Below, piece after piece: positions 4,277 to 48,718 of a stretch of DNA of 49,174 bases. A program made the position numbers and the translations under genes. Positions within the stretch are counted from its first letter, which is position 1. Every line of letters starts with the position of its first letter. This DNA is from Escherichia coli (GTDB taxonomy: Bacteria > Pseudomonadota > Gammaproteobacteria > Enterobacterales > Enterobacteriaceae), in the NCBI RefSeq assembly GCF_003334255.1, contig NZ_QOWU01000040.1; one strand, 5' to 3'. The notes beneath the pieces were generated by a model that made no database searches, was not told the DNA's origin, and saw nothing but the letters and a program-made list of their open reading frames with translations.

Positions 4277-6466
4277 ATGCTTTACAAAGGCGACACCCTG
4301 TACCTTGACTGGCTGGAAGATGGCATTGCCGAACTGGTATTTGATGCCCCAGGTTCAGTTAATAAACTCGACACTGCGACCGTCGCCAGCCTCGGCGAGG
4401 CCATCGGCGTGCTGGAACAGCAATCAGATCTAAAAGGGCTGCTGCTGCGTTCGAACAAAGCAGCCTTTATCGTCGGTGCTGATATCACCGAATTTTTGTC
4501 CCTGTTCCTCGTTCCTGAAGAACAGTTAAGTCAGTGGCTGCACTTTGCCAATAGCGTGTTTAATCGCCTGGAAGATCTGCCGGTGCCGACCATTGCTGCC
4601 GTCAATGGCTATGCGCTGGGCGGTGGCTGCGAATGCGTGCTGGCGACCGATTATCGTCTGGCGACGCCGGATCTGCGCATCGGTCTGCCGGAAACCAAAC
4701 TGGGCATCATGCCTGGCTTTGGCGGTTCTGTACGTATGCCACGTATGCTGGGCGCTGACAGTGCGCTGGAAATCATTGCCGCCGGTAAAGATGTCGGCGC
4801 GGATCAGGCGCTGAAAATCGGTCTGGTGGATGGCGTAGTCAAAGCAGAAAAACTGGTTGAAGGCGCAAAGGCGGTTTTACGCCAGGCCATTAACGGCGAC
4901 CTCGACTGGAAAGCAAAACGTCAGCCGAAGCTGGAACCACTAAAACTGAGCAAGATTGAAGCCACCATGAGCTTCACCATCGCTAAAGGGATGGTCGCAC
5001 AAACAGCGGGGAAACATTATCCGGCCCCCATCACCGCAGTAAAAACCATTGAAGCTGCGGCCCGTTTTGGTCGTGAAGAAGCCTTAAACCTGGAAAACAA
5101 AAGTTTTGTCCCGCTGGCGCATACCAACGAAGCCCGCGCACTGGTCGGCATTTTCCTTAACGATCAATATGTAAAAGGCAAAGCGAAGAAACTCACCAAA
5201 GACGTTGAAACCCCGAAACAGGCCGCGGTGCTGGGTGCAGGCATTATGGGCGGCGGCATCGCTTACCAGTCTGCGTGGAAAGGCGTGCCGGTTGTCATGA
5301 AAGATATCAACGACAAGTCGTTAACCCTCGGCATGACCGAAGCCGCGAAACTGCTGAACAAGCAGCTTGAGCGCGGCAAGATCGATGGTCTGAAACTGGC
5401 TGGCGTGATCTCCACAATCCACCCAACGCTCGACTACGCCGGATTTGACCGCGTGGATATTGTGGTAGAAGCGGTTGTTGAAAACCCGAAAGTGAAAAAA
5501 GCCGTACTGGCAGAAACCGAACAAAAAGTACGCCAGGATACCGTGCTGGCGTCTAACACTTCAACCATTCCTATCAGCGAACTGGCCAACGCGCTGGAAC
5601 GCCCGGAAAACTTCTGCGGGATGCACTTCTTTAACCCGGTCCACCGAATGCCGTTGGTAGAAATTATTCGCGGCGAGAAAAGCTCCGACGAAACCATCGC
5701 GAAAGTTGTCGCCTGGGCGAGCAAGATGGGCAAGACGCCGATTGTGGTTAACGACTGCCCCGGCTTCTTTGTTAACCGCGTGCTGTTCCCGTATTTCGCC
5801 GGTTTCAGCCAGCTGCTGCGCGACGGCGCGGATTTCCGCAAGATCGACAAAGTGATGGAAAAACAGTTTGGCTGGCCGATGGGCCCGGCATATCTGCTGG
5901 ACGTTGTGGGCATTGATACCGCGCATCACGCTCAGGCTGTCATGGCAGCAGGCTTCCCGCAGCGGATGCAGAAAGATTACCGCGATGCCATCGACGCGCT
6001 GTTTGATGCCAACCGCTTTGGTCAGAAGAACGGCCTCGGTTTCTGGCGTTATAAAGAAGACAGCAAAGGTAAGCCGAAGAAAGAAGAAGACGCCGCCGTT
6101 GAAGACCTGCTGGCAGAAGTGAGCCAGCCGAAGCGCGATTTCAGCGAAGAAGAGATTATCGCCCGCATGATGATCCCGATGGTCAACGAAGTGGTGCGCT
6201 GTCTGGAGGAAGGCATTATCGCCACTCCGGCGGAAGCGGATATGGCGCTGGTCTACGGCCTGGGCTTCCCTCCGTTCCACGGCGGCGCGTTCCGCTGGCT
6301 GGACACCCTCGGTAGCGCAAAATACCTCGATATGGCACAGCAATATCAGCACCTCGGCCCGCTGTATGAAGTGCCGGAAGGTCTGCGTAATAAAGCGCGT
6401 CATAACGAACCGTACTATCCTCCGGTTGAGCCAGCCCGTCCGGTTGGCGACCTGAAAACGGCTTAA
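4277..6466 (+). CDS. fadB: Fatty-acid oxidation complex alpha subunit (enoyl-CoA hydratase / 3-hydroxyacyl-CoA dehydrogenase)
   Basis: Track ORF 4151..6466. Start trimmed to the ATG at 4277 ([16 protein letters not shown]), which follows a CAGGAG Shine-Dalgarno and gives the 729 aa I recall for FadB. Confidence 0.95.
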
Positions 6467-7639
<1,173 letters not shown>

Positions 7640-7645
7640 CCACTT

Positions 7646-7829
<184 letters not shown>

Positions 7830-10283: not shown

Positions 10284-11596
<1,313 letters not shown>

Positions 11597-13283: not shown

Positions 13284-15526
<2,243 letters not shown>

Positions 15527-22333: not shown

Positions 22334-23287
22334 ATGATCGAAGTAAAACACCTGAAAACGCTACAAGCGTTGCGGAACTGCGGCTCGCTCGCAGCCGCTG
22401 CGGCGACGTTGCATCAGACGCAATCCGCCCTGTCTCACCAGTTTAGCGATCTGGAACAACGCCTTGGCTTCCGGCTATTTGTGCGTAAGAGCCAGCCGCT
22501 ACGCTTTACACCGCAGGGAGAAATCCTGTTGCAACTGGCAAACCAGGTACTGCCGCAAATTAGCCAGGCCCTGCAAGCCTGCAATGAACCGCAGCAGACG
22601 CGTCTGCGCATTGCCATTGAGTGCCATAGCTGTATTCAGTGGCTGACACCCGCGTTAGAAAATTTCCATAAGAACTGGCCGCAGGTAGAGATGGATTTTA
22701 AATCGGGCGTGACATTTGACCCGCAGCCCGCCTTGCAACAGGGAGAGCTGGATCTGGTAATGACGTCCGATATTCTGCCGCGCAGTGGCCTGCATTATTC
22801 GCCGATGTTCGACTATGAAGTGCGTCTGGTGTTAGCACCTGACCATCCACTGGCGGCGAAAACGCGAATTACACCGGAAGATCTCGCCAGCGAGACGCTA
22901 TTAATTTATCCGGTGCAGCGTAGTCGACTGGATGTCTGGCGGCATTTTCTTCAGCCGGCAGGCGTCAGCCCGTCACTGAAAAGCGTCGATAACACCTTAT
23001 TGTTGATTCAGATGGTTGCCGCGCGGATGGGTATTGCCGCGCTACCGCATTGGGTAGTAGAGAGTTTTGAGCGCCAGGGTCTGGTGGTGACCAAAACCCT
23101 GGGCGAAGGCTTGTGGAGCCGACTGTACGCCGCCGTGCGCGATGGCGAGCAGCGTCAGCCAGTTACGGAAGCGTTTATTCGCTCAGCGCGCAATCACGCC
23201 TGCGATCATCTGCCGTTTGTGAAGAGCGCGGAGCGACCCACTTACGATGCACCCACAGTGAGGCCAGGATCACCAGCGCGCCTGTAA
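22334..23287 (+). CDS. metR: LysR-family transcriptional activator of metE/metH
   Basis: 317-aa ORF starting [36 protein letters not shown] (LysR-type helix-turn-helix). Confidence 0.95.
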
Positions 23288-24074
23288 TAAACGTTGGCCA
23301 GTGCGGCTGTTGGTGCCAGATAGCCAGGTTTACCAGCAGCCCTGCCGGAACGTGCATATTATTCATAATGCCCAGCGTTCCGGCGTCCACCTGCGTCGCG
23401 CCGTAGTTCCACATAAAGTAGCCAATCCCGGAAGCCACCACGCCAAGAAACACCAGAATGCCCCATTGCAGCGTGGTTTGCGGCATTTTCTGCGCATTTC
23501 CCAGCAAGAACCATGCAATCACTGCCACCAGAAACGCGCCAAGATAGAACCACGCAAAGGCGTTATGCTGTGGCATCGGGCGAGTTTCCATCAGGCGTTT
23601 GTAACCCACCATGCCAATGGCAAAAGTGATATTGGAGAGTTGCACCAGCAGCAAGCCAGTCCAGAAATGGTCGGTGACCTGATCATAGCGAATAATCCCG
23701 GCACCAATCACCGCCAGCAAGGCGCTAAAGGCATAGCCCCAGCGCAGACGGCGCTTACTCATGATGTCATAAATCAGCGTGATGTAGAGCGGCGTCAGCA
23801 CGGTGAACAGCAACAGCTCGGAAACCGTCAGGTAGAGATAAGCGCGGAAACTCAGCATATACATCACGCCAAGCTGCATCGCGCCCACCAGCATATACAG
23901 GCCGACCGTTTTCAGGCTATTGCCACGGGTACGCAGAAACGGCAGAAAAACGAGTGCCGCCAGGCCAACGCGCACCAGCACCGCAAAATAGCTATCGACG
24001 TGCCCCGCAAGGTACTCGCCATAAAAGCTAAAGGAGAAGGCCCACAGAATCGTGGTGATGATAAGTAGCGCCAC
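23175..24074 (-). CDS. yigM: EamA/DMT-family inner membrane transporter YigM (recalled as the biotin transporter BioP)
   Basis: 299-aa polytopic membrane ORF starting [21 protein letters not shown]. Its 3' end overlaps the metR 3' end convergently. Confidence 0.85.
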
Positions 24075-37241: not shown

Positions 37242-37250
37242 ATTTGCTGA

Positions 37251-37967
37251 TTATATCAGCGAGGTCAGAGATGCCAACCGGGAAATTTCCAGATGCGGCA
37301 GTAAACGGCTGTCCCAGGTTTGCATCAGATCGCCATTTTCCGGTCTGATCCAACAAGCCTGCATTCCGCTGCGAATTGCCCCACCCACGTCAGTGGTGAG
37401 ATCGTCCCCAACATGTAAGATCTCGCCGATCGGCACGTTGAGTTTTTCCGCAGCCAAAAAGTACATATCGCTGAACGGTTTTGAGCGCCCGTGCGGGCCA
37501 GCGCGCAGCACAAACTCAAAATAATCCCCCAAACCAAACAGCTCCGGCTGGGCGTTACCGTTGGTGATCGCCACCAGCGGCCATTTCTTCGCCAGCTGTT
37601 TTAAGGTGTCGTGAGTTTGCTGCGGGACGTCGATTCGGCTGCGCCATTTGGCAAAGTTGATCATTGCTGCGTGTGCGCCTGCACTGGCTTCTTCGGCACT
37701 CAGCCCGGCGTCGAGCATCGCTTGTTCAATCGAACGAAAACGCCAGCGCGTCACGTCGTGATAAATCTCGGGTTCCGCTTCCCGTACCGCCTGGCGCAGG
37801 CGTTGCAGATCTTCATTCTGGAAGCTGCGCAGCGCCGGATGATAATTTTGCACAAAGGTAAGCGCCTCTCGCTCGGTGCGCAAAATCACCGGACGGTTAT
37901 CGTAAAGGGTATCATCCAGGTCAAAGGTGAGCGCCGAGATGCGCCCCAAAGGCCGGTAAAAACGCAT
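37251..37967 (-). CDS. yigB: HAD-family phosphatase YigB (recalled as 5-amino-6-(5-phospho-D-ribitylamino)uracil phosphatase)
   Basis: 238-aa ORF starting [24 protein letters not shown] (HAD DxD motif). Confidence 0.9.
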
Positions 37968-38863
37968 TATTTCCCCCGTTTGGCGCGTGGATGCGCCGCA
38001 TCGTACACCGAGGCAAGGTGTTGAAAATCAAGATGAGTATAGATTTGCGTGGTGGAGAGGTTGGCATGACCCAGCAGCTCCTGCACACCACGAAGATCGC
38101 CGCTCGACTCCAGCATATGCGTGGCGAACGAGTGACGTAATTTATGCGGATGAACGTGATTATTCAGCCCTTGTTTTATGCCCCATTCGGCAAAGCGTTT
38201 CTGCACATTACGCGCGGAGATACGCTTGCCCAGTTTCGACAGAAAAAGCGCGTCGTCTTCGCTACCAAACAGGTCGCGCAAATCAAGCCAGTGCTCAATC
38301 CACGCCACAGCGTTGCGACCAATCGGCAGGCGGCGCTCTTTGCTGCCTTTCCCCATAACCCACACTTCACCAGACTCCAGGTCGAGGTGTTTAATATCCA
38401 GCCCCACCAGCTCAGAAAGACGCAGACCCGCGCCGTACATCACTTCCAGCATTGCACGGTCGCGTACAGCGAGGGGATCATTGATATCAATATCCAGCAG
38501 CCGATTCATATCGTCGACGTCGATGTTTTTCGGCAGATGACGCGGCGCTTTCGGTGCCGAAACACCTTTCGCCGGGTTAGCTTTGAGTTCGTTCTGGCTG
38601 ACCAGCCAGTCAAAAAAGCTACGTAGCGCAGAAAGCCGTAACGCCAGACTTGCTGCTCCCAGCCCTTTACGGCGACTGCGTACAGCAAAATTGCGCACCA
38701 TCGTCACATCACATTGCTGCCAGCTTTGCAGGCCGTTTTCGCTGGCAAAATTGATGATCGCCTCAAGCTGACGCTGGTAGTTAAGCAGGGTTATCGGGCT
38801 AAGCTGGCGCTCCACGCTCAGATAACGTAGGTAGCGTTCTACATCGGTGTGTAAATCGGTCAT
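37967..38863 (-). CDS. xerC: Tyrosine recombinase XerC (chromosome dimer resolution)
   Basis: 298-aa ORF starting [33 protein letters not shown]; the C-terminal part carries the conserved tyrosine-recombinase residues ([13 protein letters not shown] ... [15 protein letters not shown]). Confidence 0.95.
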
Positions 38864-39567
38864 ACGCGTTCAATCCAACGCTCCAGAAGCTCCGGCAACA
38901 TCAGCGCAATTTCATGAAGTAACTGCGTTCCTTGCCCTTGTTGATAGTGACTGGCATCGCGACTGGTAAACAGCACGACACCCAAATCAGCATCGCTTCC
39001 CAGCATCGACATCGCCACCGATCCCACCGCTTTCGCTTCCGGTAGCACCACCAGCAGCTCTGGTCCGTTAAGCGGCCCAAGATAGTGCTGTTCCTGCCCC
39101 AAACGCTGAATACGCAGCGGTTCGAAAGACTGACGGCTTAATGCCAGATGAGTGTGGTTCGACGGCGCACCTAAGCGCCAGCGATCCGGAAACAGGCGCA
39201 GACTCGCACCTGCCAGGCCGAGATCGCGCGCCCAGCGGTGAAAGCGCATCAGCATATCGTCGAGACTGCTGGCGGCGGTGAGACTGCGCTGCAGGTAGAG
39301 TAGGCGATAAAACAGGCCTTCGTTGGCGATAGCCTGTTCCATCAACAGCGCCATGTTCTCTTCCAGAACATGAATATGATTACGTGCGCGGGCCATGTGC
39401 CACTCGACCAACGAAACGGTGCCGCGTACCGGATGCGGCACACGTATCGCTTCTACTGCGCGCGCATTACGGATAAAAAACTCAGGATTTTTAATCAGAT
39501 AATCGACAACCGCCCGGTCATCAAGCTCCGTGAGTGTTTCCTGCAGTTCTTCCCCTGGTTGCTTCAT
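38860..39567 (-). CDS. yigA: DUF484-family protein of unknown function
   Basis: 235-aa ORF starting [23 protein letters not shown]; 4-bp overlaps with both dapF upstream and xerC downstream. Confidence 0.85.
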
Positions 39568-40388
39568 AGATGAATAAATCCGTCGTAGACATGTACCGCC
39601 GGGCCAGTCATATATAACGGGTGACCCGGACCTTTCCAGGCGATATCAAGACGACCGCCGGGGAGTTCCACGCGTACTTCTTCGGCCAGCAAACCTTGCT
39701 GAATCCCTACTGCAACCGCCGCACACGCGCCGCTGCCGCAGGCCTGGGTTTCTCCTGCCCCACGCTCATAAACGCGTAAACGAATATGCTCGCGCTTAAC
39801 CACTTGCATAAAACCGATATTGGCGCGCTCCGGAAAACGCTCGTGGCTTTCCAGAACAGGACCAAGCGTTTCTACCGCCGCGGTATCGACATCATCGACC
39901 TGAATCACGCAATGCGGATTTCCCATCGACACCACGCCGCATAAGATTGTCTGCTCGGCGGCGCGCATAATATAGGTCTTTTCCGCTTTGTTAGCGCGAA
40001 ACGGCACGGCGGAAGGTTCGAAGTTGGGTTCGCCCATATTTACGCGGACCAGATCATCATCGGTGACGGTCAGAACCATCCGCCCGTTGGCGGTGCTGAC
40101 GCGGATATCACGCTTATTGGTCAGTCCTTTCAGACGCACAAAACGGGCAAAGCAGCGCGCACCGTTGCCGCACTGCGCCACTTCACTGCCATCAGCATTG
40201 AAAATGCGATAGTGAAAATCCAGTTCAGGATCATACGGCGGCTCAACCACCAGCAGTTGGTCAAACCCTACCCCCAGGTGCCGATCAGCCAGGCGACGAA
40301 TCAGCTCCGGTGAAAAAAAGACATTCTGCGTTACCGCGTCGACGACCATAAAATCGTTGCCAAGGCCATGCATTTTCGAGAACTGCAT
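39564..40388 (-). CDS. dapF: Diaminopimelate epimerase
   Basis: Track ORF 39564..40391 (MMQFSK...). Second ATG chosen, 274 aa. Confidence 0.95.
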
Positions 40389-40424: not shown

Positions 40425-40628
40425 TTAGTAATTCACCTGGGATGGACCATCGCCAGTGGCGCGATCGTTTTTATCCGGCACCGTGGATTGCGTTTGCGTC
40501 TCTACCGGTTTGGTCGGCGGCGGTGCGTTTTTATCTGCAGGCGGGAAATAGAGCGGACCTTTCAGACCGCAGCCCGTCAGGCTGAAGAGAGTAAGTAATA
40601 CAGTGAGTGCCTTAAACACGTTTTTCAT
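40425..40628 (-). CDS. yifL: Small lipoprotein YifL
   Basis: 67-aa ORF with signal peptide and lipobox (LTLFSLTGC). Confidence 0.85.
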   Translation of the reverse strand: MKNVFKALTVLLTLFSLTGCGLKGPLYFPPADKNAPPPTKPVETQTQSTVPDKNDRATGDGPSQVNY

Positions 40629-41031
40629 TATGGATTGCCTGTAAAGTTCATCGCTTTCTGCTTTCTATCATCGCAGGAGAAGACGTAAAAGCAAGCGTTT
40701 AGCGACTCTTTATGAAGTCTGAAAAGTGAGGAAATGCTGCGAGTATAACGCTTACTCGTGGGGATTTATGTTTTGCTGGTAGTTTCGTGATCGGCACCTC
40801 GCGCCAGGATGGCTTTATGCACTATCGCAATGTGGTTTGTTTGTTGTCTTTTTTAGTTCCGTCAGCGTGAGGATGCTCGCTCGGTAAACCTGATCATAAT
40901 GTTTACCAGAAACAGGGAAAGACGTGGTGTAACTGCGCCCTAATGAAGAGACAAATCTTTCGCTACACAGAGACATCATTATTCCGGTGACGGATGAATC
41001 GTGCCGGAACGCAGCCGCAGAGGTGCAAACT

Positions 41032-41060
41032 TTGAAGCCCTGACCCCATGCCGCTATACT
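41032..41060 (+). promoter_or_regulatory. Candidate sigma70 promoter of cyaY
   Basis: TTGAAG (41032..41037), 17-bp spacer, TATACT (41055..41060), about 30 bp upstream of the cyaY ATG. Inferred from sequence only. Confidence 0.45.
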
Positions 41061-41090
41061 GCCGCCATCACTTAAAAACAGGATACAACA

Positions 41091-41411
41091 ATGAACGACA
41101 GTGAATTTCATCGCCTGGCTGATCAACTCTGGCTGACCATTGAAGAACGCCTGGACGACTGGGATGGCGACAGCGATATCGACTGCGAAATCAACGGCGG
41201 CGTACTGACCATTACCTTTGAGAATGGCAGCAAAATCATTATCAACCGCCAGGAGCCGCTGCACCAGGTATGGCTGGCAACCAAACAGGGCGGCTACCAT
41301 TTTGACCTGAAAGGCGATGAGTGGATTTGTGATCGCAGCGGCGAAACCTTCTGGGATTTGCTGGAACAGGCGGCGACGCAGCAGGCGGGTGAAACAGTCA
41401 GTTTCCGCTAA
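41091..41411 (+). CDS. cyaY: Frataxin homolog CyaY (iron-sulfur cluster assembly)
   Basis: 106-aa ORF starting [33 protein letters not shown]. Confidence 0.95.
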
Positions 41412-48501: not shown

Positions 48502-48718
48502 CCTGATATATAAAAAAACGCCTGCTCTTATTACGGAGCAGGCGTTAAAACAGGTCTGTATGACAACAAGTGGGTGCTTCACTCAACGTTGTGTCCATGG
48601 TGTCTGATGAGGCATAAGCGACATCTGTCAGTGGACGATAAGCACCGTAAACGGCTCTGCGTCATTCCGGAGTTTATGAGGCACTAAGGCGAACATAAGA
48701 GATGGAATGAGCATCTAC
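48502..48718 (-). ncRNA. glmZ: GlmZ small regulatory RNA (activator of glmS translation; formerly SraJ/RyiA)
   Basis: Minus strand reads GTAGATGCTCATTCCATCTCTTATGTTCGCC ... GACCTGTTTTAACGCCTGCTCCGTAATAAGAGCAGGCGTTTTTTT, which I recognise as GlmZ, including its intrinsic terminator (10-bp stem plus T7). No ORF on this strand. The span includes the whole T-run, so the 3' end is approximate. Confidence 0.85.

Follow-up and report, generated by a model that had tools for sequence, protein, structure and literature searches.

On balance, we favor the view that YigA is a stand-alone and probably dimeric GAF sensor or adaptor, and that its gene overlaps xerC because an ancient operon of mixed functions has been compacted and is translated in a coupled manner. 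YigA is one of the Escherichia coli proteins that still lack a function, and its gene belongs to the core of all sequenced genomes of the species. The recombinase encoded beside it, XerC, has a part in segregating chromosomes, keeping plasmids stable, integrating phages, and sustaining fitness during infection. Control of XerC by YigA would add an extra regulatory layer to a system that is regarded as well understood. Gene order alone cannot carry such a claim. In the reading that we favor, yigA belongs to an ancient beta/gammaproteobacterial operon, lptM-(lysA)-dapF-yigA-xerC-yigB, whose genes of unrelated function are packed stop-on-start on one mRNA. The 4-bp overlap of yigA and xerC would then be a feature of operon compaction that probably also drives translation of the Shine-Dalgarno-poor yigA and xerC cistrons by coupling, and it would be no mark of an obligate YigA-XerC partnership. 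As for the protein itself, a putative GAF domain may bind a small molecule, although the E. coli protein has no Pfam GAF match, and the conserved N-terminal module and helix may pass the ligand state on by contact with another protein.

The window, meaning the whole stretch of 49,174 nucleotides that was analyzed, covers the hemG-to-hemY region of the E. coli chromosome. According to the open reading frame listing and the RefSeq annotation, five genes lie on the minus strand in the order lptM(yifL)-dapF-yigA-xerC-yigB, and uvrD is the next gene after yigB. The features of this operon are as follows.

40425-40628, minus strand: lptM/yifL (NCBIfam NF047847; annotation)
39564-40388 (or 40391), minus strand: dapF, diaminopimelate epimerase (TIGR00652, 348.5 bits)
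39564-39567, minus strand: 4-bp ATGA overlap of the yigA start and the dapF stop, junction string GATTTATTCATCTATGAAGCAACCAG
38860-39567, minus strand: yigA, DUF484 protein of 235 aa, ATG to TGA (PF04340; NF008203)
38860-38863, minus strand: 4-bp ATGA overlap of the xerC start and the yigA stop, junction string GATTGAACGCGTATGACCGATTTACA
37967-38863, minus strand: xerC, tyrosine recombinase of 298 aa (TIGR02224, 370.3 bits, cut-off 335; RefSeq annotation)
37251-37967, minus strand: yigB, HAD-family phosphatase of the riboflavin pathway (NF008018, 494.8 bits)

Direct reading of the junctions gave ...CATCT ATGA AGC between dapF and yigA and ...GCGT ATGA CCG between yigA and xerC, while xerC and yigB have one base in common in TAATG (...AAATA ATG). 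The overlaps of 4, 4, and 1 bp that the initial annotation had described are thus present as given, and its gene names and DUF484 assignment are borne out by the Pfam and NCBIfam profile matches. The overlapping start codon of yigA is further supported because the NF008203 model aligns from residue 1 of the protein. A 3.5-kb query around yigA has a match of ≥95% identity in every one of the 5426 complete E. coli genomes; one complete genome is base-for-base identical over the query, and the RefSeq coordinates of its 49-kb stretch agree with ours.

These overlaps are real, yet ordinary, and they are not rare in the window. Overlaps of 1 or 4 bp occur in 6 of its 29 same-strand adjacent gene pairs; three of the six belong to the dapF-yigA-xerC-yigB operon and the others are yigZ/pepQ, ubiB/ubiJ, and hemC/hemD. 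Within the operon, overlap joins genes of unrelated function, since dapF overlaps yigA and xerC overlaps the riboflavin-pathway phosphatase gene yigB. Shine-Dalgarno sequences at the usual spacing give only poor matches for yigA and xerC and good ones for dapF and yigB, a pattern that is consistent with translational coupling of yigA and xerC and makes such coupling reasonable to infer. Across 98 loci, in which gene starts were set by a simple heuristic, dapF and the DUF484 gene overlap at 44 of 88 junctions (66 of 88 have a gap of ≤30 nt) and the DUF484 gene and xerC overlap at 35 of 57. Where xerC is missing, the DUF484 gene lies next to yigB, at a median distance of 11 nt. The whole mixed-function operon is tightly packed, and the yigA-xerC pair is not special in this respect. 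A promoter and terminator scan of the operon gave nothing above shuffled expectation from dapF to yigB, and its sole strong promoter-like site lies upstream of uvrD. An NtrC gSELEX peak has been reported between yigA and xerC (PMC8743547). A search for a sigma-54-like promoter on the coding strand inside yigA returned no match, and matches to such promoters in the window as a whole fell below chance expectation.

The gene, family, fold, and operon arrangement of yigA are already known. The dapF-orf235-xerC-orf238 unit of E. coli was reportedly first described by Colloms and colleagues in 1990, and the Pseudomonas sss operon is likewise said to have an original description of its own. More recently, the operon has been listed as one unit in a study of fitness in bacteraemia, where xerC alone was mutated (PMC11376589), and as 'encoding products of diverse functions' (2023 preprint, 10.1101/2023.02.08.523653). 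The literature that we searched assigns no function to YigA and holds no clean yigA mutant phenotype, nor did it yield anything relevant on PA5279, COG3159, or orf235; the initial annotation had stated that a function and a link to XerC were not established, and this agrees with our search. A role in RNA binding was considered and rejected, as the protein served as a negative control that showed no RNA cross-linking in Salmonella (10.1101/466151).

YigA is a full-length member of the DUF484 family above the curated threshold. It matches PF04340 with E = 4.7e-90 over residues 11-233 (model positions 2-219 of 219) and the NF008203 equivalog with 407.6 bits (cut-off 254) over positions 1-234 of 234. 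Among 1.84 billion cluster representatives, searched exhaustively, 864 relatives were found at E ≤ 0.001, and an AlphaFold2 model was built on 70 diverse representatives of these (50% identity), with a mean pLDDT of 91. In the model, a small N-terminal module (approximately residues 17-52), built from a hairpin and three short helices, is followed by a long helix of 45 residues (53-97) and a C-terminal alpha/beta domain of GAF fold (approximately 100-230). Its best structural match is 3E98, the Pseudomonas protein PA5279, and the next matches are true GAF domains, among them those of PtsP, NifA, phytochromes, and PDE2A. The long helix and GAF fold are as in 3E98, which is a solved DUF484 member. 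At the level of sequence profiles, E. coli YigA matches only DUF484 in Pfam and not GAF or GAF_2, although several of its homologues carry a precomputed match to PF13185 (GAF_2). Neither the Pfam scan nor the model contains a catalytic, DNA-binding, or HTH domain. We regard YigA as the product of a genuine conserved housekeeping gene, soluble and cysteine-free (E. coli YigA has zero cysteines), that probably dimerizes through its long helix.

Conservation in the family is highest in the N-terminal module and where the helix begins, rather than in the GAF domain. In the alignment of the 70 representatives, the N-terminal module is the most conserved segment, with an entropy of 1.99 bits as compared with 2.71 bits for the GAF part, and the signature motif reads YL..NPDFF..H..LL..L..PH...G.VSLVE.Q. 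Other conserved residues are R62, A79, N82, G164, and S183. E. coli YigA carries the N-terminal motif together with N82, G164, and S183, the one exception being Q57, where it has H. When the N-terminal module by itself was used for a profile search, the matches were all DUF484 fragments, with no other architecture, and a fold search of AFDB50 returned only DUF484 family members and no functional lead.

The neighborhood of the DUF484 gene was compared in two samples. For the first, a DUF484 motif derived from a sub-alignment of 14 sequences was used to scan 100,044 species genomes, the best 80 of 508 confirmed matches were kept, and neighbors were identified by tblastn with the E. coli operon proteins; this sample is uneven, being biased toward Alteromonadales and Aeromonas, with 31 of the 80 genomes from Colwelliaceae and many from Idiomarinaceae. 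The second consisted of 12 divergent DUF484 representatives, 22%–35% identical to E. coli YigA, on metagenomic or MAG contigs. Among the best 80 of the 508 matches, dapF lies directly upstream of the DUF484 gene in 78, the two exceptions being a locus cut by a contig end and a Thiomargarita locus with neither neighbor; dapF is also immediately upstream in all 12 lineages of the second sample. In the same best 80, xerC lies directly downstream in 48, from Idiomarinaceae, Aeromonas, Bowmanella, Lacimicrobium, Alteromonas, Shewanella, Ferrimonas, Motiliproteus, Neptunomonas, Methylohalomonas, Woeseiaceae, and Natronospirales. A Phage_integrase gene of XerC type follows immediately in 10 of the 12 divergent lineages, and two Burkholderiales MAG assemblies with the same protein are among these DUF484-recombinase loci. 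The XerC model (TIGR02224) beats the XerD model by 13-74 bits in all eight recombinases tested. The DUF484 family was found only in beta- and gammaproteobacteria in the sampled loci. It had been proposed that a linkage confined to close relatives would speak against a functional connection; DUF484-xerC pairs were found in many gammaproteobacterial orders and in Burkholderiales, and the linkage is old and reaches well beyond enterics. An adjacency as old, widespread, and often overlapping as that of DUF484 and xerC is a signal that sometimes reveals partners, and this is a counterpoint to an explanation by compaction.

The association with xerC is, at the same time, the less steady of the two, with dapF the more constant neighbor of the DUF484 gene (78 of 80 and 12 of 12 for dapF versus 48 of 80 and 10 of 12 for xerC). 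An accessory factor of the Xer system would be consistently encoded with xerC, and xerC is absent from 31 of the 80 genomes and 2 of the 12 lineages in which the DUF484 gene stays. The 31 genomes, again among the best 80 of 508, all belong to Colwelliaceae (Colwellia, Thalassotalea, Cognaticolwellia, Pseudocolwellia, and Thalassomonas) and have yigB directly downstream in the order dapF-DUF484-yigB-uvrD, with no xerC within 6 kb. In the two divergent lineages, a HAD gene takes the place of the recombinase. One of these is nearest to Oceanospirillales-like sequences, which have xerC, and the other is nearest to Idiomarinaceae, which also have xerC, only slightly ahead of Colwellia; because the nearest relatives of these lineages bear xerC, the gene must have departed from the cluster at least twice. 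At the loci without xerC, the DUF484 gene keeps its length and its signature residues except one, His45, which is Asp in Colwelliaceae. This substitution was rejected as a correlate of xerC loss, since the two other lineages without xerC keep His, as does the Thiomargarita DUF484 protein with neither neighbor. On one contig, found in two samples, dapF and the DUF484 gene are fused in frame to encode a protein of 515 aa, with xerC-hslV-hslU after the fusion, and no DUF484-XerC fusion was found among the 150 best representatives of the 864. The order DUF484-xerC-hslVU occurs at two metagenomic loci, L001 and L098. In Moraxella catarrhalis, the operon has been reported as lppL-lysA-dapF-xerC, without the 'two additional uncharacterized ORFs' of Pseudomonas (PMC3735583). 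The Colwelliaceae without an xerC neighbor, Moraxella reportedly without DUF484, and the DapF-DUF484 fusion amount to natural 'experiments', and such rearrangements indicate that each pairing is dispensable.

A partnership between YigA and XerC was also addressed directly. The two proteins, joined into one chain by a Gly/Ser linker of 30 residues, were folded with AlphaFold2 on a genome-paired alignment of 30 non-redundant pairs. This crude co-fold, which contained monomeric YigA and neither DNA nor XerD and was run outside multimer mode and without PAE, gave a pTM of 0.44, approximately the value for two independent units of these sizes, and each half folded as it does alone. The N-terminal blocks of YigA gained no confidence over the model of YigA alone. 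No confident YigA-XerC interface was predicted, and we treat this as a weak negative. Partial distance correlations were 0.54 for YigA-XerC (controlling for DapF), 0.67 for YigA-DapF (controlling for XerC), the highest tested, and 0.52 for the unrelated pair XerC-YigB (controlling for DapF); the distances of DapF, YigA, XerC, and YigB all correlate strongly via shared phylogeny, and the test did not discriminate between pairs.

With XerC, XerD, and FtsK alone, XerCD-dif recombination could be reconstituted. To our knowledge, the classical Xer screens yielded only argR, pepA, xerC, and xerD, and XerC is near-universal in bacteria, with most XerC-bearing bacteria and phyla lacking DUF484. Because the reaction proceeds without YigA, the screens did not yield yigA, and the sampled DUF484 genes are confined to beta- and gammaproteobacteria, YigA cannot be a core Xer component and is at most a lineage-specific regulator. 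The step taken in the initial annotation, from tight coupling to a link with XerC, therefore holds in part: the linkage is old and widespread, but nothing singles out XerC over DapF. The step is weak because the same overlaps join dapF to yigA and xerC to yigB, because dapF is the more constant neighbor and three lineages keep dapF-DUF484-yigB without xerC, and because the co-fold gave no interface and the Xer reaction needs only XerC, XerD, and FtsK. It is weakened as well by the report of dapF-xerC without DUF484 in Moraxella (PMC3735583). A specific YigA-XerC partnership is possible but not supported, and by gene order the link of YigA to dapF is no weaker than that to xerC.

It nevertheless deserves to be asked what such a partnership would involve. 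As an accessory regulator of XerC, YigA would sense a metabolite through its GAF domain and bind XerC or the XerCD-dif synapse through its N-terminal module, thereby tuning the level or activity of XerC, for example in FtsK-independent XerC-first exchanges or in the recombination of plasmids and IMEX; with stop-start coupling, YigA and XerC would be made in a constant ratio. We consider this role unlikely. It would account for the XerC-type genes found downstream, and often overlapping, in 48 of the best 80 of 508 matches and 10 of the 12 divergent lineages, Burkholderiales included, and for an xerC without a good Shine-Dalgarno sequence of its own, and it has a loose parallel in the codV(xerC)-CodY operon of Firmicutes and Synergistetes, to which the DUF484-xerC-hslVU order of L001 and L098 may be compared. 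However, the linkage of DUF484 to dapF is stronger, the loss of xerC from the cluster in Colwelliaceae and two other lineages left DUF484 intact, and neither a confident co-fold nor an excess of distance co-variation was obtained. As noted, Xer recombination was reconstituted without YigA, yigA is not among the genes of the classical screens, and most phyla with XerC have no DUF484. In a Keio screen for heat survival, dapF and xerC are listed and yigA is not (PMC5828445), and Moraxella reportedly has dapF and xerC adjacent but no DUF484 (PMC3735583). In a further form of the proposal, which strikes us as quite improbable, the DUF484 proteins of beta- and gammaproteobacteria would act on XerC as ligand-gated partners, made at a fixed ratio to it and relaying a metabolic signal to dimer resolution or to XerC-first recombination of mobile elements. 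The signal might come from the neighboring DAP/peptidoglycan branch, and clades without the linkage would have rewired or relaxed the control.

The constancy of dapF suggests another partner, namely that YigA works with DapF or with the DAP/peptidoglycan-precursor branch, for example by sensing a DAP-pathway metabolite through its GAF domain and modulating DapF or its moonlighting partner RppH. With dapF upstream in 78 of the best 80 of 508 matches and in 12 of 12 lineages, often with the same ATGA overlap, a dapF-DUF484 pair that outlives the loss of xerC, the 515-aa in-frame fusion on one contig, and the highest partial distance correlation tested (0.67), this proposal has evidence in its favor, but we hold it to be unlikely. 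The fusion is single and could be a mutated stop codon in one assembly, shared phylogeny is the main source of the distance correlations, and DapF is nearly universal in bacteria whereas the sampled DUF484 proteins are confined to beta- and gammaproteobacteria; Moraxella is also reported to keep dapF without DUF484 (PMC3735583). That YigA is instead a GAF-fold enzyme resembling the free methionine-R-sulfoxide reductases MsrC/YebR, and not a sensor, can hardly be entertained. Catalysis by fRMsr depends on cysteines, of which E. coli YigA has none; its identity to these fRMsr-type structures is only 9%–13%, and the conserved residues of the family are concentrated in the N-terminal module and helix and not in the GAF pocket. 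An fRMsr-type enzyme was rejected for the lack of cysteine, and the mechanism is effectively refuted. Candidate partners of YigA are narrowed to XerC or DapF, or neither, and a stand-alone sensor or adaptor in a compacted operon remains the reading that we prefer.

Comparison with known systems places YigA apart from each of them. The closest relative of solved structure, PA5279 of P. aeruginosa (3E98, 'GAF domain of unknown function', DUF484), is approximately 25%–29% identical to YigA; the match names a fold and not a role, as PA5279 is likewise without an assigned function. The known Xer factors, which are the gamma domain of FtsK, ArgR, PepA, and ArcA at cer/psi, and the phage protein XafT, control when XerC or XerD cuts, and this is the type of role that had been envisaged for YigA. 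None of them is a GAF protein and none is encoded beside xerC, and YigA, unlike these factors, has no DNA-binding or translocase domain. CodY offers a nearer likeness in gene order, as it is a GAF protein that shares an operon with xerC (codV(xerC)-clpQ-clpY-codY in Firmicutes and Synergistetes), and some proteobacterial clusters of the order DUF484-xerC-hslV-hslU can be likened to it. Unlike YigA, CodY binds DNA through a winged-helix domain; it is a well-characterized transcription factor that is not known to act in Xer recombination. The Pfam scan and the AlphaFold2 model of YigA give no such combination of GAF domain and winged helix. CodY and DUF484 are different families with a different domain order, and the parallel may be a coincidence. 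Finally, the GAF domains of regulatory proteins such as PtsP/EI-Ntr, NifA, the NtrC-like Nlh1/2, PDE2A, and phytochromes are fused to an output domain, which may be a kinase, a phosphotransferase, an AAA+ module, or a cyclase, whereas YigA has no output domain and carries only its short conserved N-terminal module.

The order dapF-DUF484-yigB-uvrD was found at all 31 Colwelliaceae loci (L018, L023, L025, L028, L031, L033-L037, L039, L042, L044, L047, L050-L056, L059, L063, L068, L070, L072, L074, L076, L078, L079, and L081), and xerC was absent inside 6 kb at each of them. Clusters without xerC were also identified in two more metagenomic lineages (L091/L092 and L096), where the gene order is lptM-lysA-dapF-DUF484-HAD. 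In L092, the gene right behind the HAD gene encodes an Arm-DNA-bind_3 phage-type integrase. In a Thiomargarita MAG (L062), the DUF484 gene at 5968-6639 lacks both dapF and xerC inside 6 kb; the ORF that comes after it is 1152 aa long.

The N-terminal module of DUF484 contains an almost invariant Pro-His, whose His is equivalent to His45 of E. coli YigA. All Colwelliaceae sequences carry x-Asp in its place. The Pro-His is retained in the proteins of the two other xerC-less lineages (P0381 and P0384), and in the Thiomargarita DUF484 gene, which has neither a dapF nor a xerC neighbor.

A gene for a TraG/TrwB-type type IV coupling protein was observed immediately 3' of xerC in L087 (1976-4750), and may represent a mobile element inserted next to the cluster.

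Within the E. coli operon, the only outstanding promoter-like site is a strong sigma-70-like site at 37250-37277 (-), comprising TTGGCA, a 16-nt spacer, TATAAT, and an extended -10 TG, which overlaps the yigB stop codon and lies upstream of uvrD. By gSELEX, a peak of NtrC binding has been placed between yigA and xerC (PMC8743547), two genes whose junction lies in the region 38860-38900. No sigma-54-type promoter motif was present inside yigA on the coding strand.

Several other features were located elsewhere in the window:
7698-7775 (-), naRNA4, at the fadA 3' end (Rfam, above gathering score)
10934-10937, rfaH/tatD convergent overlap of 4 bp
14921-15172 (-), Erse small RNA (RF02757), spanning the ubiJ/ubiB junction (Rfam, above gathering score)
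23176-23288, metR/bioP convergent overlap of 113 bp
40787-40965 (+), DKNYY-family pseudogene fragment with a frameshift, between lptM and cyaY (RefSeq annotation)
48512-48718 (-), GlmZ, downstream of hemY (Rfam, above gathering score)
A 161-aa ORF at 40815-41300, on the strand opposite to the DKNYY pseudogene fragment, looks spurious.

On L001, a metagenomic contig present in two samples, DapF and DUF484 are joined in frame as a single 515-aa ORF (P0260, 6001-7548) with no intervening stop codon, and xerC-hslV-hslU come next. Two dapF-DUF484-xerC-hslV-hslU strings were identified:
L001 6001-10399, beginning with the fusion ORF
L098 3123-7411
In the L098 string, all three junctions past DUF484 are 4-bp overlaps. 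Both strings are reminiscent of the Firmicute codV(xerC)-clpQ-clpY-codY operon, in which the GAF-domain protein is CodY (PMC9318921).
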